A DNA stretch of 64,000 nt, from assembly GCF_056746865.1 (NCBI RefSeq), contig NZ_CM163382.1; one strand, 5' to 3'. A program made the translations under genes and the position numbers. Position 1 is the stretch's first letter; every line of letters begins with the position of its first letter. Below the pieces are notes generated by a model. It ran no database searches. It worked only from the letters and a program-made list of their open reading frames with translations, and was not told the DNA's origin. This document shows, one piece after another, positions 11,605-38,759 of the stretch.

Positions 11605-11673
11605 ATTTCCATTTCACGCTCTTTAACAATAAGCAATCAACTTAACAGTCAATTCAAACTAAAGGAGTCAATT

Positions 11674-12213: not shown

Positions 12214-12300
12214 CAGGTTCAGAAATGGCGAAAGCCGGTCTGCTGGAACAGAACCGACTTTCAGGTGCAAATCGTAACACACTCATTGCGGGAGGAATTA

Positions 12301-13229: not shown

Positions 13230-13927
13230 AAAACATCGCCGCACAGATGGTTAACTTTGACCGTGAGCAGATGCGTCGGATCGCCAACAACATGCCGGAA
13301 CAGTATGACGAAAAGCCACAGGTACAGCAGGTAGCGCAGATCATCAACGGTGTGTTCAGCCAGTTACTGGCAACTTTCCCGGCGAGCCTGGCTAATCGTG
13401 AGCAGAACGAACTGAACGAAATCCGCCGCCAGTGGGTTCTGGCTTTCCGGGAAAACGGGATCACCACGATGGAACAGGTTAACGCAGGAATGCGCGTAGC
13501 CCGTCGGCAGAATCGACCATTCCTGCCATCCCCCGGACAGTTTGTAGCCTGGTGCCGGGAAGAAGCATCCGTTATTGCCGGACTACCAAACACCAGCGAG
13601 CTGGTTGATATGGTTTACGAGTATTGCCGGAAGCGTGGCCTGTATCCGGATGCAGAGTCTTATCCGTGGAAATCAAACGCGCACTACTGGCTGGTTACCA
13701 ACCTGTATCAGAACATGCGGGCCAATGCGCTTACTGATGCGGAATTACGGCGCAAGGCTGCCGATGAACTGACTTGTATGACCGCGCGAATTAACCGTGG
13801 TGAGGCGATACCTGAACCAGTAAAACAACTTCCTGTCATGGGCGGTAGACCTCTAAATCGTGCACAGGCTCTGGCGAAGATCGCAGAAATCAAAGCGAAG
13901 TTCGGACTGAAAGGAGCAACTGTATGA
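13226..13927 (+). CDS. P: replication protein P (DnaB helicase loader)
   Basis: 233-aa product recognised as near-identical to lambda P. Confidence 0.95.
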   Translation: MKNIAAQMVNFDREQMRRIANNMPEQYDEKPQVQQVAQIINGVFSQLLATFPASLANREQNELNEIRRQWVLAFRENGITTMEQVNAGMRVARRQNRPFLPSPGQFVAWCREEASVIAGLPNTSELVDMVYEYCRKRGLYPDAESYPWKSNAHYWLVTNLYQNMRANALTDAELRRKAADELTCMTARINRGEAIPEPVKQLPVMGGRPLNRAQALAKIAEIKAKFGLKGATV

Positions 13928-14226
13928 CGGGCAAAGAGGCAATTATTCATTACCTGGGGACGCATAAGAGCTTCTGTGCGCAGGACGTTGCTGCGGTAAC
14001 AGGCGCAACAGTAACCAGTATAAATCAGGCTGCGGCTAAAATGGCACGGGCAGGAATCTTGGTCGTTGATGGTAAGGTCTGGCGAACGGTGTATTACCGG
14101 TTCGCTACCAGGGAAGAACGGGAAGGAAAGGTGAGCACGAATCTGATTTTCAAGGAGTGTCGCCAGAGTGCCGCGATGAAACGAGTGTTGGCAGTGTATG
14201 GAGATATGAACTTAAACTTGCTGTGA
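13924..14226 (+). CDS. ren: Ren exclusion protein
   Basis: MTGKEAIIHYLGTH... matches lambda Ren. Confidence 0.85.
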   Translation: MTGKEAIIHYLGTHKSFCAQDVAAVTGATVTSINQAAAKMARAGILVVDGKVWRTVYYRFATREEREGKVSTNLIFKECRQSAAMKRVLAVYGDMNLNLL

Positions 14227-14474
14227 CGGTTTTCATCGGTAACACACCATGTAATCTAGCAGTCAGCTTAGAAATAGGAGCGGCAGTTAAAGATTTTTCA
14301 GTTAGTAGAAAATTACTGTTATTGCAGGGATCTAATCACCGGAGAGTCGTTCCATTTGTCTTATGATTACCTGAAGTCCGTTAGTTCGTTGGTAATCACC
14401 GTTTTTGTTAGAGAAGTAAGCATCGCTGACAAAATATTCTCAACGATGCCTGCTTTATTGCTACTACAAATTAA

Positions 14475-15977
14475 TTAAATTGCATCTGCAAACTCTGGGG
14501 TTTTTCGCTCAGGTATAATTGATGAGTTGCTGTTGTCACTTTTTTTATTTTCATGATTACGAATAGCCAATGACTCATTAAAGTCTTTTGCGACTGCTGT
14601 CTCAATAAATTCAATTTCTGAATCAGAGTGTTTTTTAACAGCTTCTTTGATCTCATCCAGAGTAACATAGAAAAACTCTTTTCTACGATTTACAAGATTG
14701 ACTCTCTTTTTATCGAAGACATCATGTAGTTTTTTTTCTAATGATGGAGCGTCCTCCGAATAAATCATGGCATGTACATCAAAAATAAAAGGAACAGATG
14801 CATCACCGAGCTCATTTACACGGTCTTGCGGATCAAGACGTCGTGTCATGCCTATTTTATAAACATTCTCCCCAAAAGAACCTATGTTCGAAATAATATA
14901 AACATGACCTTGTTTGGTTTGTTGTGCCATGGATAATGCTCTTTGATGCTTTGATTCAGCCTGCGACAAACTCTGTTCTAGTTCGGCAATGCGATTTTCG
15001 AGGCGCTGCTTCATGTCACCAGTAACTTTTTCCATTTCCTTTCTTGCAGCTTCAATTGCTTTTTTATAACGGCGCTCTTCTGCCTCTGCGTCTTGCATGG
15101 CCTTTTCTATTTCTCGTTGTGCACGCTCCTCCTCTCTCATTTGTGCCCTTATTTCTGCCTGTTCTTCTTTTTCTTTCTGTTTTTGCTCACGATATTCATG
15201 GGTAAGCCACAATTCCTCAAGTTTTTTATTGAGGTATTTAGTGTTTATATATATGTGATTTTGCTCGTTTAGTTTATTTATGGCCTCAAATGCCTTTGTG
15301 ATGCGTTCTTCCATTTTAGTGATGTTTTTCCACGTGCAATTGCTAATTGCAGCATCACATTCATTATTAAATGCTCTAGTAGTTAGCCTGATATTTCTGT
15401 CTGTCATTTTTTTACCCTCTGCTCGAGAGCCTTCAACAGTCCATTGGGTTGTACAATATACTGCGCCAGAGTGGGTTTTATCCCGCAGCATTAATTTCTG
15501 TTCATCCCTGATGGATTTTATTTTGTTTTTAAATTGCTCTGAATCTTCAAAATTAAAATGAGGTTCGTAAAATCCTAGTTCGGCTAGCTCAACATCTTCT
15601 GAATAAATAGAAATTTGCCTTACTAGTTTATCATATATTTCTTTCTTCTCTTTATAAGTTCTTCTTAGCTCTTGGATTTGTTTATTGATACCATCCATTT
15701 TTTCAATGGTGTTTGTTAGTTCATTATTGGCATTTTCTTTTACTTTTAGGGATTCTTCTTTTATTATGGAGCATTCTTGCTCTGTTTTCTCAATAAGCTT
15801 CTTACATTCTTCTTCTACATTAAAATAATCTGCAAAGCGAGATTTGTATTCTTCATTTTTTTGATTGCTATCACTTAATTCTAATTGTATTTTTTTGATG
15901 CGTTTGATTGCAGCTATATAAAGAACAAGAACAACCAATAAAAATATGATTGCAAGTAATAGAGGAGTTTGAGTCAT
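14475..15977 (-). CDS. membrane-anchored coiled-coil protein with C-terminal T5orf172/GIY-YIG-like domain (candidate defence/exclusion gene)
   Basis: N-terminal hydrophobic helix, long K/E-rich coiled coil, C-terminal GHVYIISN...YKIGMTRRLDPQDRVNEL...VPF motif; very AT-rich; opposite strand to surrounding early genes. Confidence 0.75.
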   Translation of the reverse strand: MTQTPLLLAIIFLLVVLVLYIAAIKRIKKIQLELSDSNQKNEEYKSRFADYFNVEEECKKLIEKTEQECSIIKEESLKVKENANNELTNTIEKMDGINKQIQELRRTYKEKKEIYDKLVRQISIYSEDVELAELGFYEPHFNFEDSEQFKNKIKSIRDEQKLMLRDKTHSGAVYCTTQWTVEGSRAEGKKMTDRNIRLTTRAFNNECDAAISNCTWKNITKMEERITKAFEAINKLNEQNHIYINTKYLNKKLEELWLTHEYREQKQKEKEEQAEIRAQMREEERAQREIEKAMQDAEAEERRYKKAIEAARKEMEKVTGDMKQRLENRIAELEQSLSQAESKHQRALSMAQQTKQGHVYIISNIGSFGENVYKIGMTRRLDPQDRVNELGDASVPFIFDVHAMIYSEDAPSLEKKLHDVFDKKRVNLVNRRKEFFYVTLDEIKEAVKKHSDSEIEFIETAVAKDFNESLAIRNHENKKSDNSNSSIIPERKTPEFADAI

Positions 15978-16286
15978 TCGTGCTATTCCTTACGGACAAT
16001 TTAAGACGTTTTGTATTAAATCCTGTTCAATGTGTATGCGGGTGATTGCTACCGCTTACAATCTTCATAATTATCAGTTAGATAGACTCGCTAGTAAATA
16101 ATTTCATTTTTTGCAATATTCTTATTGAATATTTCAATTTATGAAATGAACTCTTTATCCTTTCAAGGTGAAAGGTTTCTTCTTCGGAAATATTTGCTCT
16201 CGTGTGACGTATAAAGACCTTTGATTTTCAAAAATCAGTAGGGAATAATATAGTTACTGTCGGCCTGAACACCCGGTGGTGGGGTT

Positions 16287-16370
16287 GCGCTAAACGGGGA
16301 CGTTTATGCGCACACACAATCCAAACTCTCATCTCCATTCACAGATGCAGAAATGCACCTACGATTTTTT
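16287..16370 (+). repeat. 84-bp direct repeat, copy 1
   Basis: gcgctaaacggggacgtttatgcgcaca...cgatttttt, about 93 percent identical to 18221-18304; begins with a hairpin and ends with a T-run. Confidence 0.85.
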
Positions 16371-16789
16371 ACATTCGGTGTTTTACTTCGACAGCCAGAA
16401 TTGGGAGTCTCTATTCGTCTGGCGGCTAAAGGTGATATGGAAATCGTTATGTTTTGGCCTGAGGTAGTTGTAACTGTTGTAGCAGCTATGGATGTGATCA
16501 TCATGGTGTCCATTTACTGGGGTTGACGACATGATTTATCCGGCGCTATATTCTGTGCGTTGCCGCAAAATCGGCACACGGGATTGGCGTCCCGGGATAC
16601 TACTCAACGCATACCGCGTTAAGCGGTTTTTTTGTGCGCTAAGCACGGCTATGCCCAAATTATGGTGGGCTGTGTGAGGGCTTCTTCGGAAGCGCCGGGT
16701 TTGAGTAGCCGGTTACGCCAACCTTACACAGTTCACCACCAGTCGATTGGCGTCGTTGGTGGTGATGGTTAACCTGATGAGGTGATACT

Positions 16790-17398
16790 ATGACTACTCA
16801 ATTAGCATTCCACAAAACGACGTTTACCCCGATTTGCCACAATAACAGAATTTGGCTTACTGCCACTGAAGTTGGTTTAGCACTGGAATATGCGGACGAT
16901 AAAGCAGTTCAGCGCATTTACTCTCGGCACTCAGATGAATTCACAGATATGATGACAAGGGTGGTCAAAGTGACCACCCCTCGTGGAATGCAGGAGTCTC
17001 GAGTATTTAGCCTTCGCGGAGCCCATTTGATCGCCATGTTTGCTCGTACTCCTGTGGCCAAAGAATTCCGCCGCTGGGTTCTGGATATTCTCGATCGAGA
17101 AGTTCAACAATCCCCAATCACAAAACAATTCACTGATAACGAACTTTGCACACTCGCCTGGTTATGGCGAGCAAGTGATACGATGTTAACCGCCTGCCAG
17201 AACGTTACGCCCCTTCTTCAGGTCGCAGAGCATCGCGAAGCAGGTAGATTCACTTCAATCGAACAAGAATATCCTCGGATACTCAACAGGGCGCGAGAAA
17301 TCCTTGCCAGAGAAACGGCGCATGTAAAATTCCAACCGTGGCAGGATGATAAGTGGAGTCGTGTGTTACCATATTTCCGTCAGAATCTGTTGCAATAA
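16790..17398 (+). CDS. Bro-N/antirepressor-like protein
   Basis: N-terminal pattern ...RIWLTATEVGLALEY...RWVLDIL resembles Bro-N/Ant-type phage domains. Confidence 0.55.
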   Translation: MTTQLAFHKTTFTPICHNNRIWLTATEVGLALEYADDKAVQRIYSRHSDEFTDMMTRVVKVTTPRGMQESRVFSLRGAHLIAMFARTPVAKEFRRWVLDILDREVQQSPITKQFTDNELCTLAWLWRASDTMLTACQNVTPLLQVAEHREAGRFTSIEQEYPRILNRAREILARETAHVKFQPWQDDKWSRVLPYFRQNLLQ

Positions 17399-17633
17399 AG
17401 TCACTAGTTAGAAATACTGCCAGCATTCTGCGATGACGGAAGTGCTGGCATTTTTTTTGGTAATGTGCGAGTCCATTTCATAAAATACGGGTACTGGAAC
17501 TGGACGATATAATCTAAAAGATACCATTATCAGTAGCATTAAAATCGCTATGTGCCGATACGGATATAAATTATATTGATTGTTCACATACCTTATTGGA
17601 TATTACTGAGGGGTGTTTATATAAGGTGTAACG

Positions 17634-18143
17634 ATGATGTGGAACTTTGACAGTGCCGACTTAAGTGCAATAGCAGCAGGCATTTCTGCGTTTGGCACAT
17701 TAGCCGCAGCGGGGTCGGCGCTTGCAAGTTGGTGCACGTCAAAAAAAGCGCTGCAGCTACAAAATAGAGTTTACCTTTATGAGTCTTTAAAGGCTTGCGC
17801 TGAGAGAGCCAATTCATCAGCTAAAGATAAGCGCGGATCTGAATGGAGCGTTAATGATGCAGCGGATATCATCAGGTGCCTAGTACGGGCGATGGAGCTC
17901 ATCAAGCAGGATAGCCAGCAGAAAGAAGGTAATCAGGCATTAATGTTGAAACAGTACTTTGTTAATCTGCTAATAATGGAACTGTACGAGGAAGTTCATA
18001 ACGGTGATGCGGCTGATTCTGTTTTTAAAAGTACGGAACCTACACAAGTACTTGATAACTTATGGAGCAAATGGCAGGAGGCTATAGCTTTTTTTGATAT
18101 TTGGAATTACCCAGTTGCGACTGAGGAAGACTTGGCAGACTAA
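17634..18143 (+). CDS. hypothetical protein with N-terminal hydrophobic segment
   Basis: 169-aa ORF within the repeat-flanked module. Confidence 0.5.
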   Translation: MMWNFDSADLSAIAAGISAFGTLAAAGSALASWCTSKKALQLQNRVYLYESLKACAERANSSAKDKRGSEWSVNDAADIIRCLVRAMELIKQDSQQKEGNQALMLKQYFVNLLIMELYEEVHNGDAADSVFKSTEPTQVLDNLWSKWQEAIAFFDIWNYPVATEEDLAD

Positions 18144-19827: not shown

Positions 19828-20211
19828 ATGCGTGATATTCAGATGGTTCTTGAGCGTTGGGGAGCGTGGGCGGCTAATAATCATGAAGATGTGACCTGGT
19901 CGTCCATTGCCGCCGGTTTTAAGGGATTAATTCCTTCAAAAGTAAAATCTCGCCCGCAATGTTGTGACGATGACGCGATGATCATTTGCGGGTGCATGGC
20001 CCGTCTGAAAAAGAACAACAGCGATTTGCACGATTTATTAGTAGATTATTATGTAGTCGGTATGACATTCATGTCACTGGCAGGTAAGCATTGCTGCTCT
20101 GATGGTTATATCGGGAAAAGGTTACAAAAGGCTGAGGGCATAATTGAAGGGATGTTAATGGCATTAGATATCCGGTTAGAGATGGATATCGTTGTTAATA
20201 ACTCTAATTAA
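19828..20211 (+). CDS. quuD: late-gene antiterminator Q
   Basis: Start at [18 protein letters not shown]; recognised as DLP12-type Q; followed by hairpin-rich qut/terminator region. Confidence 0.85.
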
Positions 20212-20227
20212 TATGCCAATTGTTTAC

Positions 20228-20263
20228 TAAAAATTATTAAAAATGGGGCGTTGAGACGCCCCC
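20228..20263 (-). terminator. candidate rho-independent terminator (minus strand)
   Basis: Stem GGGGCGT-loop-ACGCCCC with a T-rich tract on the minus strand. Confidence 0.35.
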
Positions 20264-20350
20264 AAAAATAAAGGGTAATATATAACAGAAGGTTTATATA
20301 GTTAGAAGCAAGGTTGTGCTTCTAAAGGAAGTGGCTTGAGGGAGCCACTT

Positions 20351-20390
20351 ATATGTTGGGGAGGCAACGCCTCCCGCAACATATCTTTTT
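20351..20390 (+). terminator. tR'-like terminator downstream of Q/pR' (possibly bidirectional with the porin gene)
   Basis: Near-perfect palindrome ATATGTTGGGGAGGCAACGCCTCCCGCAACATAT followed by CTTTTT. Confidence 0.55.
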
Positions 20391-20400
20391 CGTAATCAGA

Positions 20401-21483
20401 TTAGAACTGGTAAACCAGACCTACAGCAACGATGTCATCAGTATCAATACCAGCTGTTTTGGTAAACTTACTATCGTCAATTAAGTTGATTTTGTAATCA
20501 ACAAAAGTGGACATGTTTTTATTAAAGTAGTAAGTAGCACCGACATCGACATACTTGACTAAGTCTCGGTCACCATGAACACCAAGGTCTTTACCTTTTG
20601 ACTGAAGGTAAGCAACAGATGGGCGCAGACCGAAGTCAAACTGATATTGTGCTACTGCTTCAAAGTTTTGTGCTTTGTTTGCAATATGGTTATTACCAAA
20701 AACGGTCATATTCTGAGTTTCAGAATATGTGGTAGCCAGATAGATATTGTTCGCATCATATTTCAGGCCTGCAGCCCATACTTCCGCATTTTTGCCGGAG
20801 GCATTGAATTTGCTCTTACCATAGGCGACCTGACCGTCAGTGCGATCTGATTTAGCATAGGTTGCACCCACGCCGAATCCTTCATACTCATAAGTAGTGG
20901 AGAAACCGAAACCATCACCATTGGCTTCAGTTACGTCAGTGCGGTCATTTTTACCCTGATACTGAGCAGCAAAGTTCAGGCCATCGACCAGACCAAAGAA
21001 GTCGTTGTTACGATAAGTTGCAACACCAGTAGTGCGACCAGTCATGAACACATCTGTTTGGGTCCAGGTATCACCACCGAATTCTGGCAGGACGTCAGTC
21101 CACGCACCGATGTCGTATGCTACACCGTAGTTACGGCCGTAATCGATTGAGCCGTAATCACCAAATTTCAGGCCTGCAAATGCAAGACGGGTTTTGTCTT
21201 TGGAAGAACCTTGAGATTCAGCGCGGTTGCCTTTGAATTCATATTCCCACTGACCGAAACCAGTCAGTTGATCGTTGATTTGGGTTTCACCTTTGAAGCC
21301 AAGACGGGCATAAGTAGTATCACCATCATCTGCATCATTAGAGGAGAAGTAGTGCTTAGCATTAACTTTCCCGTACAGATCCAGCTTGTTACTGTCTTTA
21401 TTATAAATTTCAGCTGCCTGAGCAGACATCGCCATCAGTACTGATGCAGCTACAGCAGAAATTGCCACTGTTAATTTTTTCAT
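20401..21483 (-). CDS. nmpC: general outer-membrane porin (NmpC/OmpD-like), prophage cargo
   Basis: 360-aa product with signal peptide and C-terminal ...VGLVYQF porin ending; located between Q and lysis genes on opposite strand. Confidence 0.85.
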
Positions 21484-22056
21484 CGTGAGCCCTTTTTTTT
21501 GAACTATTATTAAAAAATGATGTCACTGCGCGATAAATATTCATCTAATCAATGTGATTATTTCAAGATGTAAGTTTTGGTTTCTCGTTTAATTTGTGAA
21601 GTAGATCTCTATTTTTATCTGAACTTTTTTCTATCGAATCCTATTCATGGCTCTTGGCTGAATAAAAATAAATCTATTAGCCAATTTATATTAATGGCTG
21701 TTATTTATAAGTGCTCTATAATTTGAAGGTTCAATTTAAATTGGCTAAAAATAACGCTGGAAATTATTTGTTGGTTATTTGTTGAGATTTGCTTATGTAT
21801 TTGTAGTGGTGTTTTCAATACTCGGTAGCATTCTCGCAAATATCATTTAGTGGTTTACGTACGTAAAAAATTGGTTATGCTGTTAAGAGTGGTTACTTCG
21901 TCACACAGCTTAAACCCGCCGTCGAGCGGGTTTTTCCATTTTTTGAGTCTCGATATTAGCTGATAACCCAATACCTGAGTTATTCACTGACTCCGAGTCT
22001 GTTACGTTTCGTAGTATTCCCTCAATTTACACCCGCTTTGTCTGCGAGGTGGGGTT

Positions 22057-22272
22057 ATGAAATCCATGGATAAGTTAACAACGGGTGTCGCCTATGGCAC
22101 CTCAGCAGGTAGTGCCGGGTACTGGTTTTTACAGCTGCTCGATAAAGTCACGCCCTCACAGTGGGCAGCAATAGGTGTGCTGGGTAGCCTGGTATTTGGC
22201 CTGCTGACGTACCTGACAAACCTTTATTTCAAGATTAAAGAAGATAAGCGCAAGGCTGCGAGAGGTGAATAA
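22057..22272 (+). CDS. essD: pinholin (phage 21 S-type)
   Basis: 71-aa two-TM product recognised as S21/EssD. Confidence 0.85.
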
Positions 22273-22769
22273 TGCCTCCATCATTACGAAAAGCTGTTGC
22301 TGCTGCTATTGGTGGCGGGGCTATTGCTATAGCATCTGTGTTAATCACTGGCCCAAGTGGTAACGATGGTCTGGAAGGTGTGAGACATAATCCTTACAAA
22401 GACATAGTTGGTGTATGGACTGTATGTTACGGGCATACAGGAAAAGACATCATTCCCGGTAAAACGTATACCGAAGCAGAGTGCAAAGCCCTCCTGAATA
22501 AAGACCTTGCCACTGTCGCCAGACAAATTAACCGGTACATCAAAGTCGATATACCGGAAACAACGCGCGGCGCTCTTTACTCGTTCGTCTACAACGTGGG
22601 TGCTGGCAATTTCAGAACATCGACGCTTCTTCGCAAAATAAACCAGGGTGATATTAAAGGCGCATGTGATCAGCTACGGCGCTGGACATACGCTGGCGGT
22701 AATCAATGGAAAGGACTGATGACTCGCCGTGAGATTGAGCGTGAAGTCTGTTTGTGGGGGAAACAATGA
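22272..22769 (+). CDS. rrrD: SAR endolysin (lysozyme)
   Basis: 165-aa product with N-terminal signal-anchor-release segment; recognised as R21/RrrD. Confidence 0.9.
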
Positions 22770-23233
22770 GCAGAGTAACCGCGATTATCTCCGCTCTGGT
22801 TATCTGCATCATCGTCTGCCTGTCATGGGCTGTTAATCATTACCGTGATAATGCAATCGCCTACAAAGAACAGCGCGATAACAAGGCCAGTGAACTGGAG
22901 AAGGCGAACGCCACCATTACTGACATGCAGCAGCGCCAGCGTGATGCTGATGCACTCGATGATAAATACACGAAGGAGTTAGCTGATGCGAAAGCTGAAA
23001 ATGATGCTCTTCGGCGCAAGCTTGATAATGGTGGTCGGGTGCTCGTCAAAGGAAAATGCCCTGTGCCATCCTCAGCCGAAACCTCCAGCGCCTCCGGCAT
23101 GGGCAATGATGCCACCGTCGAACTCTCTCCAGTTGCTGGACGAAACGTTCTCGGTATCCGGGACGGAATTATCCGCGACCAAACAGCATTGAGAACGCTT
23201 CAGGAATACATCAGGACGCAATGCCTTCGATGA
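22766..23233 (+). CDS. rzpD: spanin inner-membrane subunit Rz
   Basis: Start at [18 protein letters not shown]-terminal TM then coiled coil. Confidence 0.8.
22986..23192 (+). CDS. rzoD: spanin outer-membrane lipoprotein Rz1, embedded in Rz in +1 frame
   Basis: ORF inside Rz with lipobox-like VVGC and Pro-rich segment [11 protein letters not shown]. Confidence 0.65.
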
Positions 23234-23724
23234 TAGCGATAATTTTACTCATCATCCTTCACATCTGGCTCTGTAGACAGGGTGGTGCTCACTTCTGGAG
23301 TGAATCCAGATTAAACATCTCATTGCTGATGCTTGATATTGAGCATTTTGCGCGCGGTAAGGGGCTGCGTTGAGATAAGAGCCAGTCATTACAAATACCA
23401 GGATTTAGCCTCGCATTCGCGGGGCTTTTTATTGCCATTACAAAAGCCACTTCCTACAGAGTGGCTTTGATAATGGCTTATACCCTACACGGGATAACTT
23501 AACTGATATCCCTTTTAAAGGATAAAGGTATTCAAGCCTGACACATCATGCGCTGTATCGTCGCCGTATTCCCGTATTAACAGAGACCGTAGCCCGACGG
23601 GGAACTCCTTCTGCGCGAGTGTGCGGGAATAATCAATAACGATGCACACCGGGGTTACCGGGTACACATATTTCATCATGCCAGCGAGTCCGGTTCTGGC
23701 ACGGAAGAAACCGGACGTTATGAT

Positions 23725-24135
23725 TTAGTGCGGAAATATTTGTGTAGTGTTCTGAATGTTCTCAGTAAAGAGTAATGAATTATCAAAGGTATAGTAATAC
23801 CTTTTGTTTTCGTGGATATTTGTAATCCATCTGAAAACCCCTGCTGTAGCAAGATTTTTCCTGTATTCGTAAAATGATAACTCTCCTGATTTGAATCCTT
23901 TTAAGGTGGCTTCTATAAGGCATTTATTTTTTGAAAATCTTACATTTACAACCTTACTCTGTCCTTTTATTAAAACCGTATTATCGTTTTCAAGAACAAG
24001 ATGAATATTCTCTGTGGCTAAATAGTAAATGTAATGTGAGACATTGTGACGTTTTAGTTCAGAATAAAACCAGTGATAGTTTAAATTATTTCGCACTTTA
24101 TCGAATATTTGTTTAAAAATGGCAACCTGAGCCAT
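23725..24135 (-). CDS. ybcV: YbcV-family protein
   Basis: Start at [14 protein letters not shown]; recognised as DLP12 YbcV. Confidence 0.75.
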
Positions 24136-24192
24136 TGTAGTACCTTCCATGTGATATGAAGGTACCTAGTCTGCACGATTATCTAAATTGCT

Positions 24193-24426
24193 TCAATCTG
24201 GTCTGACCTGCTTTCTGAGCAATTCAGTAATGTCACTCTTTTCTTTGTTTGCTTCAGGCGAAACTCTTTTTTCTGAGCACAGTCTTCGGCGGCAGGCTTC
24301 AATGACCCAGGCTGAGAAATTCCCGGACCCTTTTTGATCAAGAGCAATGTTAATTTGTTCAATCATTTGGTTAGGAAAGCGGATGTTGCGGGTTGTTGTT
24401 CTGCGGGTTCTGTTCTTCGTTGACAT
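24193..24426 (-). CDS. small basic protein, possible ribbon-helix-helix DNA-binding protein
   Basis: 77-aa ORF with Arg-rich N-terminus. Confidence 0.4.
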   Translation of the reverse strand: MSTKNRTRRTTTRNIRFPNQMIEQINIALDQKGSGNFSAWVIEACRRRLCSEKRVSPEANKEKSDITELLRKQVRPD

Positions 24427-24589
24427 GAGGTTGTCCCGTATTCAGTGTCGCTGATTTGTATTGTCTGAAGTTGTTTTTACGTTAAGTTGATGCAGATCAA
24501 TTAATATGATACCTGCGTCATAATTGATTATTTGACGTGGTTTGATGGCGTAGATGCACGTTGTGACATGCAGATGATAATTATTATCA

Positions 24590-24810
24590 TTTTGCGGGTC
24601 CTTTCCGGCGATCCGACAGGTTACGGGGCGGCGACCTCGCGGGTTTTCGCTATTTATGAAAATTTTCCGGTTTAAGGCGTTTCCGTTCTTCTTCGTCGTA
24701 ACTTAATGTTTTTATTTAAAATACCCCCTGAAAAGAAAGGAAACGACAGGTGCTGAAAACGAACTTTTGGGCCTCTGTCGTTTCCTTTCTCTGTTTTTGG
24801 CCGTGGAATG
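24590..24810 (+). other. cos site (cosQ-cosN-cosB); 12-nt cohesive end GGGCGGCGACCT at 24626-24637
   Basis: Sequence ...ttacg|GGGCGGCGACCTCGCGGGTTTTCGCTATTTATGAAAATTTTCCGG... recognised as the lambda cohesive-end region immediately upstream of Nu1. Confidence 0.9.
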
Positions 24811-24814
24811 AACA

Positions 24815-25334
24815 ATGGAAGTCAACAAAAAGCAGCTGGCTGACATTTTCGGTGCGAGTATCCGTACCATTCAGAACTGGCAGGAACAGGGAATGCCCGT
24901 TCTGCGAGGCGGTGGCAAGGGTAATGAGGTGCTTTATGACTCTGCCGCCGTTATAAGATGGTATGCCGAAAGGGATGCTGAAATTGAGAACGAAAAGCTG
25001 CGCCGGGAAGTTGAAGAACTGCGGCAGGCCAGCGAGACAGATCTCCAGCCAGGGACTATTGAGTACGAACGCCATCGACTTACGCGTGCGCAGGCCGACG
25101 CACAGGAGCTGAAAAATGCCAGAGACTCCGCTGAAGTGGTGGAAACCGCATTCTGTACTTTCGTGCTGTCGCGGATCGCAGGTGAAATTGCCAGTATTCT
25201 CGACGGGATCCCCCTGTCGGTGCAGCGGCGTTTTCCGGAACTGGAAAACCGACATGTTGATTTCCTGAAACGGGATATCATCAAAGCCATGAACAAAGCA
25301 GCCGCGCTGGATGAACTGATACCGGGGTTGCTGA

Positions 25335-25360
<26 letters not shown>
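24815..25360 (+). CDS. Nu1: terminase small subunit
   Basis: 181-aa product recognised as lambda Nu1. Confidence 0.95.
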
Positions 25361-29041
<3,681 letters not shown>

Positions 29042-29061
<20 letters not shown>

Positions 29062-30373
29062 TCTCCCGCATATTGCCAGCATGGCCTTTAATGAGCCGCT
29101 GATGCTTGAACCCGCCTATGCGCGGGTTTTCTTTTGTGCGCTTGCAGGCCAGCTTGGGATCAGCCGCCTGACGGATGCAGTATCCGGCGACAGCCTGACT
29201 GCCGGAGAGGCACCCGCGGCGCTGGCGTTATCCGGTGATGATGACGGACCACGACAGGCCCGCAGTTATCAGGTCATGAACGGCATCGCCGTGCTGCCGG
29301 TGTCCGGTACGCTGGTCAGCCGGACGCGGGCGCTGCAGCCGTATTCGGGAATGACCGGTTACAATGGCATTATCGCCCGTCTGCAACAGGCTGCCAGCGA
29401 TCCGATGGTGGACGGCATTCTGCTCGATATGGACACACCGGGCGGGATGGTGGCGGGAGCATTTGACTGTGCTGACATCATCGCCCGTGTGCGAGACATA
29501 AAACCGGTATGGGCGCTGGCCAACGACATGAACTGCAGTGCAGGTCAGCTGCTTGCCAGCGCCGCCTCCCGGCGTCTGGTCACGCAGACTGCCCGGACAG
29601 GCTCCATCGGCGTCATGATGGCTCACAGTAATTACGGTGCTGCCCTGGAGAAACAGGGCGTGGAAATCACGCTGATTTACAGCGGCAGCCATAAGGTGGA
29701 TGGCAATCCCTACAGCCATCTTCCGGATGACGTCCGGGAGACACTGCAGTCCCGGATGGACGCAACCCGCCAGATGTTTGCGCAGAAGGTGTCGGCATAT
29801 ACCGGCCTGTCTGTGCAGGCTGTGCTGGATACCGAGGCTGCAGTGTACAGCGGTCAGGAGGCCATTGATGCCGGACTGGCTGATGAACTTGTTAACAGCA
29901 CCGATGCGATCACCGTCATGCGTGATGCACTGGATGCACGTAAATCCCGTCTCTCAGGAGGGCGAATGACCAAAGAGACTCAATCAACAACTGTTTCAGC
30001 CACTGCTTCGCAGGCTGACATCACCACCGTGGAGCCTGCGAAGGAGGGCGAAAACGCCAGCGCGGCGCAGCCGGATGTGAACGCACAGATCACCGCAGCG
30101 GTTGCGGCAGAAAACAGCCGCATTATGGGGATCCTCAACTGTGAGGAGGCTCACGGACGCGAAGAACAGGCGCGCGTTCTGGCAGAAACCCCCGGAATGA
30201 CCGTGGAAACGGCCCGCCGCATTCTGGCCGCAGCACCACAGAGTGCACAGGCGCGCAGTGACACTGCGCTGGATCGTCTGATGCAGGGTGCACCGGCACC
30301 GCTGGCTGCAGGTAACCTGGCATCTGATACCAATAAAGAATTACTTAATACACCTGAAGCTTTACCGGTATAA
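29042..30373 (+). CDS. C: head maturation protease C (scaffold Nu3 nested in frame in 3' part)
   Basis: GTG start at 29042 gives VTAELRNLPHIASMAFNEP... matching lambda gpC; ORF track start 28928 is an upstream extension. Confidence 0.9.
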
Positions 30374-30382
30374 GAGGCAGTT

Positions 30383-30715
30383 ATGGCGACAAAAGAAGAG
30401 TTTAACCATTACCAGCCGCTGGGTAACAGTGATCCGGCTCATACAGCAATTGCGCCTGGCGGATTGAGTGCGAAAACGCCTGCAATGACCCCACTGATGC
30501 TGGATGGCACTACCCGTAAGCTGGTTGTGTGGGATGGCACCACCGACGGTGCAGCCGTTGGCATTCTGGCGGTTGCTGCTGACCAGACCAGCACCACACT
30601 GACGTTCTACAAGTCCGGCTCGTTCCGTTATGAGGATGTGCTCTGGCCGGAGGCTGCCAGCGACGAGACGAAAAAACGGACCGCGTTTGCCGGAACGGCA
30701 ATCAGCATCGTTTAA
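30383..30715 (+). CDS. D: head decoration protein D
   Basis: 110-aa product recognised as lambda gpD. Confidence 0.95.
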
Positions 30716-30770
30716 TCTTCCCCTTCATCAACAAAGGCCGCCTGTGCGGCTTTTTTTATGGAAATAATTT

Positions 30771-31796
30771 ATGTCTGTATATACAACTGCAGAATTACTG
30801 GCATCGACCCAGCATCACTTTAAGTTCGATCCGCTGTTTCTGCGCCTGTTTTTCCGTGAAACCTATCCTTTCACCACGGAGAAAGTCTATCTCTCACAAA
30901 TTCCGGGACTGGTAAACATGGCGCTGTACGTTTCGCCGATTGTTTCCGGTGAGGTTATCCGATCCCGTGGCGGCTCCACCTCTGAATTTACGCCGGGTTA
31001 TGTCAAACCCAAGCATGAGGTGAATCCGCAGATGACCCTGCGTCGCCTGCCGGATGAAGAACCGCAGAACCTGGCTGACCCGGCTTACCGTCGTCGCCGT
31101 ATTATTCGGCAGAATATGCTGGATGAAAATCTGGCGATTGCCCAGGTCGAAGAGATGCAGGCAGTTTCTGCCGTGCTTAAGGGCAAATACACCATGACCG
31201 GTGAAGCCTTCGATCCGGTTGAGGTGGATATGGGCCGCAGTGAGGCGAATAACATCACGCAGTCCGGCGGCACGGAGTGGAGCAAGCGTGACAAGTCCAC
31301 GTATGATCCGACCGACGATATCGAAGCCTACGCGCTGAACGCCAGCGGAGTGGTGAATATCATCGTGTTTGATCCGAAAGGCTGGGCGCTGTTCCGTTCC
31401 TTCAAAGCCGTCAGGGAGAAGCTGGATACTCGTCGCGGCTCTCATTCCGAGCTGGAGACAGCGGTGAAAGACCTGGGCAAAGCGGTGTCCTACAAGGGGA
31501 TGTATGGCGATGTGGCCATCGTCGTGTATTCCGGACAGTACGTGGAAAACGGCGTCAAAAAGAACTTCCTGCCGGACAACACGATGGTGCTGGGGAACAC
31601 TCAGGCACGCGGTCTGCGCACCTATGGCTGCATTCAGGATGCGGACGCACAGCGCGAAGGCATTAACTCCTCTGCCCGTTACCCGAAAAACTGGGTGACC
31701 ACCGGCGATCCGGCGCGTGAGTTCACCATGATTCAGTCAGCACCGCTGATGCTGCTGGCTGACCCTGATGAGTTCGTGTCCGTACAACTGGCGTAA
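30771..31796 (+). CDS. E: major capsid protein E
   Basis: 341-aa product recognised as lambda gpE. Confidence 0.95.
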   Translation: MSVYTTAELLASTQHHFKFDPLFLRLFFRETYPFTTEKVYLSQIPGLVNMALYVSPIVSGEVIRSRGGSTSEFTPGYVKPKHEVNPQMTLRRLPDEEPQNLADPAYRRRRIIRQNMLDENLAIAQVEEMQAVSAVLKGKYTMTGEAFDPVEVDMGRSEANNITQSGGTEWSKRDKSTYDPTDDIEAYALNASGVVNIIVFDPKGWALFRSFKAVREKLDTRRGSHSELETAVKDLGKAVSYKGMYGDVAIVVYSGQYVENGVKKNFLPDNTMVLGNTQARGLRTYGCIQDADAQREGINSSARYPKNWVTTGDPAREFTMIQSAPLMLLADPDEFVSVQLA

Positions 31797-31837
31797 TCGT
31801 GGCCCTTCGGGGCCATTTTCTCTATGTGGAGGAGTCC

Positions 31838-32233
31838 ATGACGAAAGGTGAACTGATTGTCCGTCTCCGGTCGCTGGGTGAGCAACTGAACCGTGATGTC
31901 AGCCTGACGGGGACGAAAGAAGAACTGGCGCTCCGTGTGGCAGAGCTGGAAGAGGAGCTTGATGACACGGATGACGCTGCCGGTCAGGATACCCCTCTCA
32001 GACCGGAAAATGCGCTGACCGGACATGAAAATGAGGTGGTATCAGCGCAGCCGGATACCATGATTGATACGGCTGCTCTGGTCACGGTCGTGGCACTGGT
32101 GACGCTGCATACTGATGCACTTCACGCCACGCGGGATGAACCTGTGGCATTTGTGCTGCCGGGAACGGCGTTTCGTGTCTCTGCCGGTGTGGCAGCCGAA
32201 ATGACAGAACGTGGCCTGGCCAGAATGCAATAA
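31838..32233 (+). CDS. FI: DNA-packaging protein FI
   Basis: Start at MTKGELIVRLRSLGEQ; recognised as lambda FI. Confidence 0.9.
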   Translation: MTKGELIVRLRSLGEQLNRDVSLTGTKEELALRVAELEEELDDTDDAAGQDTPLRPENALTGHENEVVSAQPDTMIDTAALVTVVALVTLHTDALHATRDEPVAFVLPGTAFRVSAGVAAEMTERGLARMQ

Positions 32234-32244
32234 CGGGAGGCGCT

Positions 32245-32598
32245 GTGGCTGATTTCGATAACCTGTTCGATGCTGCCATTGCCCGCGCCGATGAAACGAT
32301 ACGCGGGTACATGGGAACGTCAGCCACCATGACATCCGGTGAGCAGTCCGGCGCAGTAATACGTGGTGTTTTTGATGACCCTGAAAATATCAGCTATGCC
32401 GGACAGGGCGTACGCGTTGAAGGCTCCAGCCCGTCCCTGTTTGTCCGGACTGATGATGTGCGGCAGCTGCGGCGCGGCGACACGCTGACCATCGGTGAGG
32501 AAAACTTCTGGATAGACCGGATTTCGCCGGATGATGGTGGAAGCTGTCATCTCTGGCTTGGGCGGGGCGTACCGCCTGCCGTTAACCGTCGCCGCTGA
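32245..32598 (+). CDS. FII: head completion protein FII
   Basis: 117-aa product recognised as lambda FII. Confidence 0.95.
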   Translation: MADFDNLFDAAIARADETIRGYMGTSATMTSGEQSGAVIRGVFDDPENISYAGQGVRVEGSSPSLFVRTDDVRQLRRGDTLTIGEENFWIDRISPDDGGSCHLWLGRGVPPAVNRRR

Positions 32599-32609
32599 AA
32601 GGGGGATGT

Positions 32610-33188
32610 ATGGCCATAAAAGGTCTTGAGCAGGCCGTTGAAAACCTCAGCCGTATCAGCAAAACGGCGGTGCCTGGTGCCGCCGCAATGGCCATTAACC
32701 GCGTTGCTTCATCCGCGATATCGCAGTCGGCGTCACAGGTTGCCCGTGAGACAATGGTACGCCGGAAACTGGTAAAGGAAAGGGCCAGGCTGAAAAGGGC
32801 CACGGTCAAAAATCCGCAGGCCAGAATCAGGGTTAACCGGGGGGATTTGCCCGTAATAAAGCTGGGTAACGCGCGGATTGTCCTGTCCCGACGCAGGCGT
32901 CGTAAAAAGGGGCAGCGTTCAGCCCTGAAAGGTGGCGGCAGCGTGCTTGTGGTGGGAAACCGTCGTATTCCCGGCGCGTTTATTCAGCAACTGAAAAATG
33001 GCCGGTGGCATGTCATGCAGCGTGTGGCCGGGAAAAACCGTTACCCCATTGATGTGGTGAAAATCCCGATGGCGGTGCCGCTTACCACGGCGTTTAAACA
33101 GAATATTGAACGGATACGGCGTGAACGTCTTCCGAAAGAGCTGGGCTATGCGCTGCAGCATCAACTGAGAATGGTAATAAAGCGATGA
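32610..33188 (+). CDS. Z: tail completion protein Z
   Basis: 192-aa product recognised as lambda gpZ. Confidence 0.95.
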   Translation: MAIKGLEQAVENLSRISKTAVPGAAAMAINRVASSAISQSASQVARETMVRRKLVKERARLKRATVKNPQARIRVNRGDLPVIKLGNARIVLSRRRRRKKGQRSALKGGGSVLVVGNRRIPGAFIQQLKNGRWHVMQRVAGKNRYPIDVVKIPMAVPLTTAFKQNIERIRRERLPKELGYALQHQLRMVIKR

Positions 33189-33580
33189 AACATACTGAAC
33201 TCCGTGCAGCCGTACTGGATGCACTGGAGAAGCATGACACCGGGGCGACGCTTTTTGATGGTCGCCCCGCTGTTTTTGATGAGGCGGATTTTCCGGCAAT
33301 TGCCGTTTATCTCATCGGCGCTGAATACACAGGCGAAGAGCTGGACAGTGATACCTGGCAGGCGGAGCTGCATATTGAAGTTTTCCTGCCTGCTCAGGTG
33401 CCGGATTCAGAGCTGGATTCGTGGATGGAGTCCCGGATTTATCCGGTGATGAGCGATGTCCCGGCACTGTCAGATTTGATCACCAGTATGGTGGCCAGTG
33501 GCTATGACTACCGGCGCGACGATGATGCGGGCCTGTGGAGTTCAGCCGATCTGACTTATGTCATTACCTATGAAATGTGA
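33185..33580 (+). CDS. U: tail terminator protein U
   Basis: 131-aa product recognised as lambda gpU. Confidence 0.95.
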
Positions 33581-33587
33581 GGACGAT

Positions 33588-34328
33588 ATGCCTGTACCAA
33601 ATCCAGTAATGCCGGTGAAAGGGGCCGGGACCACACTGTGGGTTTATAAGGGGAGCGGTGACCCTTATGCGAACCCGCTTTCAGACGTTGACTGGTCGCG
33701 TCTGGCAAAAGTTAAAGACCTGACGCCCGGCGAACTGACCGCTGAGTCCTATGACGACAGCTATCTCGATGATGAAGATGCAGACTGGACTGCGACCGGG
33801 CAGGGGCAGAAATCTGCCGGAGATACCAGCTTCACGCTGGCTTGGATGCCCGGAGAGCAGGGGCAGCAGGCGCTGCTGGCGTGGTTTAATGAAGGTGATA
33901 CCCGTGCCTATAAAATCCGCTTCCCGAACGGCACGGTCGATGTGTTCCGTGGCTGGGTCAGCAGTATCGGTAAGGCGGTGACGGCGAAGGAAGTGATTAC
34001 CCGCACGGTGAAGGTCACCAATGTGGGACGTCCGTCGATGGCAGAAGATCGCAGCACGGTGACGGCGGCCACCGGCATGACGGTAACGCCAGCCAGTGCT
34101 TCCGTAGTGAAAGGGCAGAGCACCACGCTGACCGTGGCCTTCCAGCCGGAAGGGGCAACCGACAAGAGCTTCCGTGCGGTGTCTTCGGATAAAACAAAAG
34201 CCACCGTGTCGGTCAGTGGTATGACCATCACCGTGAACGGCGTTGCTGCAGGCAAGGTCAACATTCCGGTTGTATCTGGTAATGGTGAGTTTGCTGCGGT
34301 TGCAGAAATCACCGTCACCGCCAGTTAA
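33588..34328 (+). CDS. V: major tail tube protein V
   Basis: Start at [15 protein letters not shown]; recognised as lambda gpV. Confidence 0.95.
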
Positions 34329-34343
34329 TCCGGAGAGTCAGCG

Positions 34344-34766
34344 ATGTTCCTGAAAACAGAATCATTTGAACATAACGGTGTGACCGTCACGCTTTCTGAA
34401 CTGTCAGCCCTGCAGCGTATTGAGCATCTCGCCCTGATGAAACGGCAGGCAGAACAGGCGGAGTCAGACAGCAACCGGAAGTTTACTGTGGAAGACGCCA
34501 TCAGAACCGGCGCGTTTCTGGTGGCGATGTCCCTGTGGCATAACCATCCGCAGAAGACAAAGCTGCCTTCCATGAATGAAGCCGTTAAACAGATTGAGCA
34601 GGAAGTGCTTACCACCTGGCCCACAGAGGCAATTTCTCATGCTGAAAACGTGGTGTACCGGCTGTCCGGTATGTCTGAGTTTGTGGTGAATGATGCTCCT
34701 GAACAGGCAGAGGACGCCGGGCCTGCAGAGCCTGTTTCTGCGGGAAAGTGTTCGACGGTGAGCTGA
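34344..34766 (+). CDS. G: tail assembly chaperone G
   Basis: 140-aa product recognised as lambda gpG; slippery GGGAAAG at 34742-34748. Confidence 0.95.
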   Translation: MFLKTESFEHNGVTVTLSELSALQRIEHLALMKRQAEQAESDSNRKFTVEDAIRTGAFLVAMSLWHNHPQKTKLPSMNEAVKQIEQEVLTTWPTEAISHAENVVYRLSGMSEFVVNDAPEQAEDAGPAEPVSAGKCSTVS

Positions 34767-35182
34767 GTTTTGCCCTGAAACTGGCGCGTGAGATGGGGCG
34801 ACCCGACTGGCGCGCCATGCTTGCCGGGATGTCATCCACGGAGTATGCCGACTGGCACCGCTTTTACAGTACCCATTATTTTCATGATGTTCTGCTGGAT
34901 ATGCACTTTTCCGGGCTGACGTACACCGTGCTCAGCCTGTTTTTCAGCGATCCGGAGATGCATCCGCTGGATTTCAGTCTGCTGAACCGGCGCGAGGCTG
35001 ACGAAGAGCCTGAAGATGATGTGCTGATGCAGAAAGCGGCAGGGCTTGCCGGAGGCGTTCGTTTTGGCCTGGACGGGAATGAAGTTATCCCCGCTTCCCC
35101 GGATGTGGCGGACATGACGGAGGATGACGTAATGCTGATGACAGTATCAGAAGGGATCGCAGGAGGAGTCCGGTATGGCTGA
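34748..35182 (+). CDS. T: tail assembly protein T (made as G-T fusion by -1 frameshift)
   Basis: -1 frame ORF overlapping 3' end of G, recognised as lambda gpT. Confidence 0.85.
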   Translation: MFDGELSFALKLAREMGRPDWRAMLAGMSSTEYADWHRFYSTHYFHDVLLDMHFSGLTYTVLSLFFSDPEMHPLDFSLLNRREADEEPEDDVLMQKAAGLAGGVRFGLDGNEVIPASPDVADMTEDDVMLMTVSEGIAGGVRYG

Positions 35183-37730
35183 ACCGGTAGGCGATCTGGT
35201 CGTTGATTTAAGTCTGGATGCGGCCAGATTTGACGAGCAGATGGCCAGAGTCAGGCGTCATTTTTCCGGTACGGAAAGTGATGCGAAAAAAACAGCGGCA
35301 GTCGTTGAACAGTCGATGAACCGGCAGGCGCTGGCTGCACAGAAAGCGGGAATTTCCGTCGGGCAGTATAAAGCCGCCATGCGTATGCTGCCTGCGCAGT
35401 TCACTGACGTGGCCACGCAGCTTGCAGGCGGGCAAAGTCCGTGGCTGATCCTGCTGCAACAGGGGGGGCAGGTGAAGGACTCCTTCGGCGGGATGATCCC
35501 CATGTTCCGGGGGCTTGCCGGTGCGATCACCCTGCCGATGGTGGGGGCCACCTCGCTGGCGGTGGCGACCGGAGCGCTGGCGTATGCCTGGTATCAGGGC
35601 AACTCAACCCTGTCCGATTTCAACAAAACGCTGGTCCTTTCCGGCAATCAGGCGGGACTGACGGCAGATCGTATGCTGGTCCTGTCCAGAGCCGGGCAGG
35701 CGGCAGGGCTGACGTTTAACCAGACCAGCGAGTCACTCAGCGCACTGGTTAAGGCGGGGGTAAGCGGTGAGGCTCAGATTGCGTCCATCAGCCAGAGTGT
35801 GGCGCGTTTCTCCTCTGCATCCGGCGTGGAGGTGGACAAGGTCGCTGAAGCCTTCGGGAAGCTGACCACAGACCCGACGTCGGGGCTGACGGCGATGGCA
35901 CGCCAGTTCCATAACGTGACGGCGGAGCAGATTGCGTATGTTGCTCAGTTGCAGCGTTCCGGCGATGAAGCCGGGGCATTGCAGGCGGCGAACGAGGCCG
36001 CAACGAAAGGGTTTGATGACCAGACCCGACGCCTGAAAGAGAACATGGGCACGCTGGAAACCTGGGCAGACAGGACAGCACGGGCATTCAAATCCATGTG
36101 GGATGCGGTGCTGGATATTGGTCGTCCTGATACCGCTCAGGAGATGCTGATTAAGGCAGAGGCTGCGTTTAAGAAAGCAGACGACATCTGGAATCTGCGC
36201 AAGGATGATTATTTTGTTAACGATGAAGCGCGGGCACGTTACTGGGATGATCGTGAAAAGGCCCGTCTTGCGCTTGAAGCCGCCCGAAAGAAGGCTGAGC
36301 AGCAGAGTCAACAGGACAAAAATGCGCAGCAGCAGAGCGATACCGAAGCGTCACGGCTGAAATATACCGAAGAGGCGCAGAAGGCTTACGAACGGCTGCA
36401 GACGCCGCTGGAGAAATATACCGCCCGTCAGGAAGAACTGAACAAGGCACTGAAGGACGGGAAAATTCTGCAGGCAGATTACAACACGCTGATGGCGGCG
36501 GCGAAAAAGGACTATGAAGCGACGCTGAAAAAGCCGAAAGGCGTGAAGGTGTCTGCGGGCGATCGTCAGGAAGACAGTGCTCATGCTGCCCTGCTGACGC
36601 TTCAGGCAGAACTCCGGACGCTGGAGAAGCATGCCGGAGCGAATGAGAAAATCAGCCAGCAGCGCCGGGATTTGTGGAAGGCAGAAAGTCAGTTCGCGGT
36701 ACTGGAGGAGGCGGCACAACGTCGCCAGCTGTCCGCACAGGAGAAATCCCTGCTGGCGCATAAAGACGAGACGCTGGAGTACAAACGCCAGCTGGCTGTA
36801 CTTGGCGACAAGGTCACCTATCAGGAGCACCTGAACGCGCTGGCGCAGCAGGCGGATAAGTTCGCACAGCAACAACGGGCAAAACGGGCCGCCATTGATG
36901 CAAAAAAACGGGGGCTGACTGACCGGCAGGCAGCGCGGGAAGCCACGGAACAGCGCCTGAAGGAACAGTATGGCGATAATCCGCTGGCGCTGAATAACGT
37001 CATGTCAGAGCAGAAAAAGACCTGGGCGGCTGAAGACCAGCTTCGCGGGAGCTGGATGGCAGGCCTGAAGTCCGGCTGGAGTGAGTGGGAAGAGAGCGCC
37101 ACGGACAGTATGTCGCAGGTTAAAAGTGCTGCCACGCAGACCTTTGATGGTATTGCACAGAATATGGCGGCGATGCTGACCGGCAGTGAGCAGAACTGGC
37201 GCAGCTTCACCCGTTCCGTGCTGTCCATGATGACAGAAATTCTGCTTAAGCAGGCAATGGTGGGGATTGTCGGGAGTATCGGCAGCGCCATTGGCGGGGC
37301 TGTTGGTGGCGGCGCGTCCGCGTCAGGCGGTACAGCCATTCAGGCCGCTGCGGCGAAATTCCATTTTGCAACCGGAGGATTTACGGGAACCGGCGGCAAA
37401 TATGAGCCAGCGGGGATTGTTCACCGCGGTGAATTTGTCTTCACGAAGGAGGCAACCAGCCGGATTGGCGTGGGGAATCTCTACCGGCTGATGCGCGGCT
37501 ATGCCACCGGTGGTTATGTCGGTACACCGGGCAGCATGGCGGACAGCCGGTCGCAGGCGTCCGGGAAGTTTGAGCAGAATAACCATGTGGTGATTAACAA
37601 CGACGGCACGAACGGTCAGATAGGGCCACAGGCGCTGAAGGCGGTTTATGACGTAGCCCGTAAGGCGGCAATGGATGTTGTGACCGGGCAGATGCGTGAT
37701 GGTGGTCTGTTCTCCGGAGGTGGACGATGA
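35175..37730 (+). CDS. H: tail tape-measure protein H
   Basis: 851-aa product recognised as lambda gpH. Confidence 0.95.
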   Translation: MAEPVGDLVVDLSLDAARFDEQMARVRRHFSGTESDAKKTAAVVEQSMNRQALAAQKAGISVGQYKAAMRMLPAQFTDVATQLAGGQSPWLILLQQGGQVKDSFGGMIPMFRGLAGAITLPMVGATSLAVATGALAYAWYQGNSTLSDFNKTLVLSGNQAGLTADRMLVLSRAGQAAGLTFNQTSESLSALVKAGVSGEAQIASISQSVARFSSASGVEVDKVAEAFGKLTTDPTSGLTAMARQFHNVTAEQIAYVAQLQRSGDEAGALQAANEAATKGFDDQTRRLKENMGTLETWADRTARAFKSMWDAVLDIGRPDTAQEMLIKAEAAFKKADDIWNLRKDDYFVNDEARARYWDDREKARLALEAARKKAEQQSQQDKNAQQQSDTEASRLKYTEEAQKAYERLQTPLEKYTARQEELNKALKDGKILQADYNTLMAAAKKDYEATLKKPKGVKVSAGDRQEDSAHAALLTLQAELRTLEKHAGANEKISQQRRDLWKAESQFAVLEEAAQRRQLSAQEKSLLAHKDETLEYKRQLAVLGDKVTYQEHLNALAQQADKFAQQQRAKRAAIDAKKRGLTDRQAAREATEQRLKEQYGDNPLALNNVMSEQKKTWAAEDQLRGSWMAGLKSGWSEWEESATDSMSQVKSAATQTFDGIAQNMAAMLTGSEQNWRSFTRSVLSMMTEILLKQAMVGIVGSIGSAIGGAVGGGASASGGTAIQAAAAKFHFATGGFTGTGGKYEPAGIVHRGEFVFTKEATSRIGVGNLYRLMRGYATGGYVGTPGSMADSRSQASGKFEQNNHVVINNDGTNGQIGPQALKAVYDVARKAAMDVVTGQMRDGGLFSGGGR

Positions 37731-38056
37731 AAACCTTCCGCTGGAAAGTGAAACCGGGTATGGATGTGGCTTCGACTCCTTCCGTCAGGGAGGTGCGCTT
37801 TGGTGATGGTTACTCCCAGCGCGCGCCTGCCGGGCTGAATGCCAACCTGAAAACGTACAGCGTGACGCTTTCTGTCCCCCGTTGGGAGGCCACGGCGCTG
37901 GAATCGTTTCTGGCAGAGCACGGAGGCTGGAAAGCCTTTCTGTGGACGCCGCCTTATGACTGGCGGCAGATAAAGGTGATCTGCGCAAAATGGACGTCGC
38001 GGGTCAGTATGCTGCGTGTTGAGTTCAGCGCAGAGTTTAAACAGGTGGTGAACTGA
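37727..38056 (+). CDS. M: tail tip protein M
   Basis: 109-aa product recognised as lambda gpM. Confidence 0.95.
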   Translation: MKTFRWKVKPGMDVASTPSVREVRFGDGYSQRAPAGLNANLKTYSVTLSVPRWEATALESFLAEHGGWKAFLWTPPYDWRQIKVICAKWTSRVSMLRVEFSAEFKQVVN

Positions 38057-38754: not shown

Positions 38755-38759
38755 ATCCC

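Follow-up and report, generated by a model that had tools for sequence, protein, structure and literature searches.

A predicted lambda-specificity cos site in an apparently intact DLP12-related prophage at argU

The prophage at argU

The stretch of E. coli chromosome analysed here, hereafter the window (64,000 nt, contig NZ_CM163382.1 of RefSeq assembly GCF_056746865.1), includes a prophage integrated at argU, between fimZ and envY. The two ends of the prophage are marked by a direct repeat of 47 bp without mismatch:

3867-3913, + strand: attL core, the 3' part of the tRNA-Arg(TCT) gene argU and the left boundary of the prophage
50407-50453, + strand: attR core, the second copy of the repeat

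No attR was found immediately to the right of the tail-fibre genes (47.0-48.2 kb), and the copy at 50407 lies beyond appY and ompT. The appY (48031-48780, +) and ompT (49030-49983, −) genes are located inside the att repeats as cargo of the right arm, and ompT is found in many other phages. Excision between the 47-bp repeats would yield a 46,540-bp circle, which carries a single cos site and has 96% of the length of lambda.

In BLAST comparisons, positions 3508-49900 of the window were 99.98% identical to strain SCU-313, and the segment from 20000 to 30000 was matched perfectly by many other human isolates. The left flank (1-3520, sfm/fim genes around fimZ) shows an IS1-associated rearrangement relative to SCU-313, where only 1010-3522 aligns, with 6 gaps.

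Genes that match defence systems are also present in the prophage. The ORF at 14475-15977 (−) encodes a 500-aa protein with DUF4041 and T5orf172/GIY-YIG domains, identified by PADLOC as PD-Lambda-1 (E 2e-198), which is SNIPE, a membrane-bound nuclease that cuts incoming phage DNA (PMC13190303). The SCU-313 copy of the SNIPE gene differs by a 1-bp indel close to the 5' end (window position 15856). Directly downstream of the gene for a cI-like repressor, where lambda has rexAB, is a two-gene cassette (9096-10498, −) with matches to PDC-M63, a candidate defence system (E ~1e-42 for each gene): M63A/DUF6932 at 10025-10498 and M63B at 9096-10028. Phage PhiR26_1 has a 'putative lipoprotein' in place of this cassette.

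Between Q and the lysis genes lies an intact phage porin gene (20401-21483, −; Pfam Porin_1), which is named 'OmpC' in RefSeq and OmpD/NmpC elsewhere; the copy in K-12, nmpC, is split by IS5. The lysis cassette (22057-23233) belongs to the phage 21/434 type, not to that of lambda S/R, and consists of genes for a 71-aa holin (essD-like), a 165-aa lysozyme and then Rz/Rz1-type spanins. The lysozyme has an N-terminal hydrophobic stretch, and this and its position match the SAR endolysin gene in the phage 434 record. In the bor/ybcV region (23010-24264), the sequence either has no counterpart in lambda or matches it at only ~83% identity.

Identification of the cos site

The initial annotation had recognised a lambda cos region around 24626-24637. 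The 12-nt sequence GGGCGGCGACCT is present at 24626-24637 on the + strand, and is the sole match within the 64-kb window when up to one mismatch is allowed. With this tolerance 0.24 matches are expected by chance, and 24 of 100 shuffled sequences had at least one; for the exact 12-mer, the expectation is ~0.008 by our own arithmetic. A one-mismatch match to a 12-mer has no significance by itself, and the case is carried by the flanks.

When window positions 24226-25025 were aligned with the right end of lambda joined to its left end, 748 of 802 alignment columns were identical. Local BLAST against lambda gave two HSPs that abut exactly at the virion ends (24625|24626), with 24264-24625 corresponding to lambda 48141-48502 (94.2% identity) and 24626-42628 to lambda 1-18002 (96.6%). 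The joined ends of phage 434 differ from the window by only 6 substitutions in 320 bp and by no indels. Over hundreds of bp, the window is 94-98% identical to the virion ends of lambda and of 434 on both sides, and the exact, unique 12-mer, together with the flank alignments to the joined lambda ends, bears out the proposed position of the lambda cos. That the GC-rich 12-mer arose by chance, or belongs to a regulatory region with no role in packaging in a phage using the headful (pac) mechanism, is extremely improbable. One-mismatch matches are found in shuffled sequence at the frequency given above, but the flanks match the virion ends of both lambda and 434, and the terminase is of the gpA/Nu1 type and not of the pac type. 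A chance origin is already refuted by the alignments to the virion ends.

Subsites of the cos region

The closest characterised phage is 434 (OL657226.1). In its curated record, the cosN overhang is annotated at 1-12, R3 at 50-65, I1 (as an IHF site) at 74-86, the inverted R2 at 108-123, R1 at 151-166, the Nu1 ribosome-binding site at 180-182 and the Nu1 start at 190, with cosQ beginning 30 nt before the right end. As the alignment of the window with 434 includes no indel, these subsite coordinates could be transferred directly:

24596-24602, + strand: cosQ (GGGTCCT), packaging-termination subsite, equal to lambda 48473-48479 and to 434 cosQ at 47964-47970 of 47993
24621-24642 (approximate limits), centred at 24631/24632: cosN, nicking site of ~22 bp, identical to lambda across the junction
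24626-24637, + strand: 12-nt cohesive-end sequence GGGCGGCGACCT, exact and unique in the window
24643-24675, + strand: I2, AT-rich static bend between cosN and cosB, 33/33 identical to lambda bp 18-50 with no indel
24675-24690, + strand: cosB R3, AGGCGTTTCCGTTCTT, predicted binding site for the terminase small subunit, 16/16 identical to lambda (434 50-65)
24699-24711, − strand: cosB I1, AAACATTAAGTTA as read on the minus strand, predicted IHF site, 13/13 identical to lambda and 434
24733-24748, − strand: cosB R2, predicted Nu1 site in the orientation opposite to R3 and R1, 16/16 identical to lambda
24776-24791, + strand: cosB R1, TGTCGTTTCCTTTCTC, predicted accessory Nu1 site, 16/16 identical to lambda (434 151-166)
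24805-24807, + strand: Nu1 ribosome-binding site, coordinates from the 434 record
24815, + strand: Nu1 ATG, coordinates from the 434 record

The interval originally assigned to the site (24590-24810) takes in cosQ through R1. The beginning of cosQ is 30 nt upstream of the predicted top-strand nick, the same as in lambda and in the 434 annotation. In lambda, cosN is ~22 bp with two-fold symmetry, and both the extent (bp 18-50) and the role of I2 have been described (PMC4856287). Nicks are predicted at 24625|24626 in the top strand and at 24637|24638 in the bottom strand. A 238-bp lambda segment (48446-182) that has served as a complete cos in experiments (PMC4856287) corresponds to window 24569-24806.

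The complex architecture of cosB, with R3, I1, inverted R2 and R1, is that described previously (PMC4669245). The R3/R2 and R2/R1 inverted-repeat geometry was independently returned by a repeat finder, and the reverse complement of R2 matches R1 at 15 of 16 positions. A search with the strict IHF consensus WATCARNNNNTTR gave 8 matches in the window as compared with 5.7 expected, none of them in cosB. The miss at I1 is uninformative, since the experimentally defined I1 of lambda, being 13/13 identical, is equally non-consensus. A promoter and terminator scan of 24100-25000 gave counts not above those in shuffled sequences. A sigma-70-like match, GTGACA-16-TATCAT (10/12), was seen at 24563-24590 (+), just upstream of cosQ and directed toward cos.

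Terminase and morphogenesis genes

The genes for the two terminase subunits are located downstream of cosB:

24815-25360, + strand: Nu1 (nohD in RefSeq), terminase small subunit, 178/181 residues identical to lambda Nu1 (98%), Pfam Phage_Nu1 E 2e-101
25335-27260, + strand: gpA, terminase large subunit, ATPase and predicted cosN-nicking endonuclease, 638/641 residues identical to lambda (99.5%)

Nu1 was originally said to follow cos directly. It is indeed the next gene, but its start at 24815 lies 177 bp past the end of the overhang, and this gap is occupied by I2 and cosB, as in lambda. Nu1 does not differ from its lambda counterpart at residues 1-47, which include the DNA-binding wHTH for recognition of the R sites, and Pfam assigns GpA_ATPase and GpA_nuclease to gpA. 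A tblastn search with every lambda morphogenesis protein found W, B, C, D, E, FI, FII, Z, U, V, G, H, M, L, K, I and J at full length, in open reading frames, with 83-100% identity and in the lambda order.

Gram-negative PICIs are described as bearing lambda-like cosQ and cosN with a cosB of their own (PMC6739421, PMC9026076), and the site could belong to, or be exploited by, such a satellite (cos-type PICI/EcCI). However, the site is flanked by the lysis cassette and the Nu1/A genes of a complete 46.5-kb phage genome and has a lambda-identical cosB, and neither a satellite-sized element (~10-15 kb with its own att sites) nor a redirecting gene adjoins 24.6 kb, which leaves this explanation with a negligible probability. 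The satellite and headful-packaging readings were both rejected on gene content.

The subsites identical to those of lambda at lambda spacing, the cognate terminase and the head and tail module thus support the original proposal of a lambda-type cos with predicted cohesive-end packaging, and no sequence evidence contradicting it was encountered. Since all features by which a lambda cos is recognised in sequence are present, cohesive-end packaging would be the expected mechanism. With high confidence, as judged from these features, the site is predicted to be a bona fide cos of lambda specificity, located mid-way in an apparently intact lambdoid prophage that is a full-length relative of DLP12 at argU.

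Conservation of the cos region

The cos region is matched by 95 records in the phage collection. Among the matches listed, the first base of at least 15 phage records is the one equivalent to 24626; these include the records of lambda, 434, ev243, 2G7b, Perceval, O276 and DN1. A scan of IMG/VR with a 24-mer across cosN, a pattern that left cosQ unconstrained, gave at least 120 loci, from which 94 unique −130/+190 flanks were listed. In these, 6 of the 7 cosQ columns are fully invariant (mean conservation 0.997). Sixty-two of the 94 listed flanks are lambda-type through cosB, and in these R3, I1, R2 and R1 are conserved at 97.6-99.8%, as compared with 92% for the spacers. The other 32 retain cosQ-cosN-I2 but diverge abruptly from R3 onward, and I2 is nearly invariant even where cosB differs. 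This split reproduces the known modular picture, in which cosQ and cosN are shared, and cosB and the N-terminus of Nu1 set the specificity (Feiss et al., PMC4669245), and assigns the window to the class with lambda specificity.

A 246-bp cos segment is present at ≥80% coverage in 3970 of 5426 complete E. coli genomes (~73%), at a median of 2 places per genome and up to 8, and is unannotated there. Given this frequency, the site is one that is already known: it is a textbook lambda cos, entirely ordinary in itself and of little import. The cos site is unannotated in RefSeq. Recognising it allows an annotator to mark the predicted virion ends and to label the packaging type as cos with 12-nt 5' overhangs.

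Potential RNA structure of the R2-R1 segment

R2, its spacer and R1 (24734-24790) form an inverted repeat with 26-nt arms. As late mRNA, this segment would fold into a very stable hairpin (−34.9 kcal/mol, z = −4.9) that ends ~14 nt before the Nu1 ribosome-binding site, and all nine R2-R1 spacer haplotypes in IMG/VR fold into a hairpin. Compensatory changes in the hairpin were sought among the nine haplotypes and none was convincing, most being G.U to A-U or loop changes. A Rfam scan of 23200-25200 (E≤1) returned no known family, only sub-threshold miRNA-like matches from the R2/R1 hairpin. It is conceivable, but quite doubtful, that cosB would double as an RNA element in the Q-antiterminated late transcript, tuning Nu1 translation or the stability of late mRNA. 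A more mundane option is that the prophage may be inducible, a 'living DLP12' by which appY, ompT and SNIPE are transferred from strain to strain.

Proposed packaging mechanism

From the mechanism established for lambda (PMC4669245, PMC4856287), a phage with the same or almost the same subsites and terminase, we infer the following for the strain carrying the window. Excision of the prophage would be followed by rolling-circle replication. IHF would bend I1, and a Nu1 dimer would dock on R3 and R2, with R1 as an accessory site, thereby positioning gpA to introduce staggered nicks 12 nt apart, at 24625|24626 (top strand) and 24637|24638 (bottom strand). Strand separation would then expose 12-nt 5' overhangs. 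The terminase would remain on the cosB/Nu1 side and subsequently dock on the portal, with DNA translocated rightwards, from Nu1 towards J, then past att, int and Q, and through the lysis genes to the next cos. There, cosQ and cosN would trigger the terminating cut, cosQ enabling the nicking of the bottom strand. The predicted virion DNA is 46,540 bp, with a left end of 5'-GGGCGGCGACCT and a right end just after ...CAGGTTACG.

State of the prophage

The only serious alternative concerns the use of the site, not its identity. The cos could be a relic, intact in sequence but never used by its own phage, in a prophage that makes no virions, like DLP12 of K-12, and this we consider unlikely. At most, such a site would be cut in situ by the lambda-specificity terminase of a co-resident or superinfecting phage and act as a recombination hot spot, a fate to which a similarly low probability is given.

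The state of the same locus in K-12 argues for a relic. DLP12 of K-12 (NC_000913.3) is integrated at argU with the same appY, ompT and attR flanks as in the window. It is cryptic: cos and nohD remain, but the genes from A up to and including those for the tail are gone. The part corresponding to window 25642-47375, which begins within gene A and extends to the gene for tail-fibre assembly, is missing from K-12, whereas the copy in the window is complete. Excision may also be impaired: for a xis-like HTH ORF (4946-5347, −), which encodes a putative Xis and overlaps the start of int, PGAP annotates only a 66-nt HTH fragment in SCU-313, and xisD of K-12 is a pseudogene. However, the isolated phage PhiR26_1 has an int/xis module with 98% identity to that of the window. 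The number of lambda-type cos copies in E. coli genomes (median 2, up to 8) also favours a relic, as many are presumably in defective prophages, and so does the documented recombination with DLP12, which its cos stimulates (PMC3945230).

On the other side, the ORFs of the morphogenesis module and lysis genes and those for Q, O/P, cI and int are intact in the window, as are both att cores, and the annotation of the locus in SCU-313 includes zero pseudogenes in the att/int, repressor, replication, antitermination, lysis, head and tail modules. Lambda heads accept about 75-105% of 48.5 kb, and the 46,540-bp unit is within this range; hence the cos-to-cos distance is packageable. Close mosaic relatives, PhiR26_1, Kati, PhiR68_2 and ev243, are found in the phage-genome collection. 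Coverage of the early region by PhiR26_1 is 85% (97.4% identity), and that of the late region by PhiR46_1, ev243 and others is 85-89% (95-96%). In the isolated phages Kati and PhiR68_2, the segment with appY and ompT is 99.7-99.9% identical as far as attR. Several of the deposited mosaic relatives have a named propagation host, and at least one of them, PhiR68.2, was used in infection assays. An apparently intact prophage, in which the cos would be used, is preferred over a relic. The prophage then shows the complete form of the cryptic DLP12 of K-12, which is mildly useful as context.

Comparison with known cos sites

In lambda, cosQ, the overhang, I2, R3, I1, R2 and R1 are all 100% identical to those in the window and in the same order, and the cosN-to-R3 spacing and the direction of packaging relative to the genes are also the same. 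A 320-bp comparison with lambda revealed 19 differences, none inside any named subsite. These are 17 substitutions or indels in spacers upstream of the Nu1 start, one in the spacer between R1 and the ribosome-binding site, and one artefact of the alignment end. By our own estimate, which assumes that the annotated subsites make up about a quarter of the interval, the chance that all 17 would miss the subsites is ~0.75^17, or ~0.01. The R2-R1 spacer is 24 nt in the window and 25 nt in lambda; hence Nu1 starts at +190 as compared with +191 in lambda. Phage 434 shares the start at +190, and has T at position 53, in R3, where the window (24678) and lambda have C. The cos of K-12 DLP12, with its 12-mer at 580645, has 11 differences from the window in 330 bp. 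The nu1/cos-proximal region of DLP12 functions once recombined into lambda, and such lambda x DLP12 recombinants are viable (PMC3945230), which supports the reading of the site in the window as a lambda-specificity cos.

The predicted packaging specificity would be common to the prophage in the window, lambda and 434. Shared specificity would permit exchange of genes and cosmids with lambda and 434, and would leave the cos open to cutting by any co-resident lambda-specificity terminase. The cos sites of the phage 21/N15/phi80 type have cosQ, cosN and I2 in common with the window but differ in cosB, where the R sites of the window, like the recognition helix of its Nu1, are the lambda alleles. 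Given these alleles, the specificity is predicted to be that of lambda, and not that of 21 or N15.
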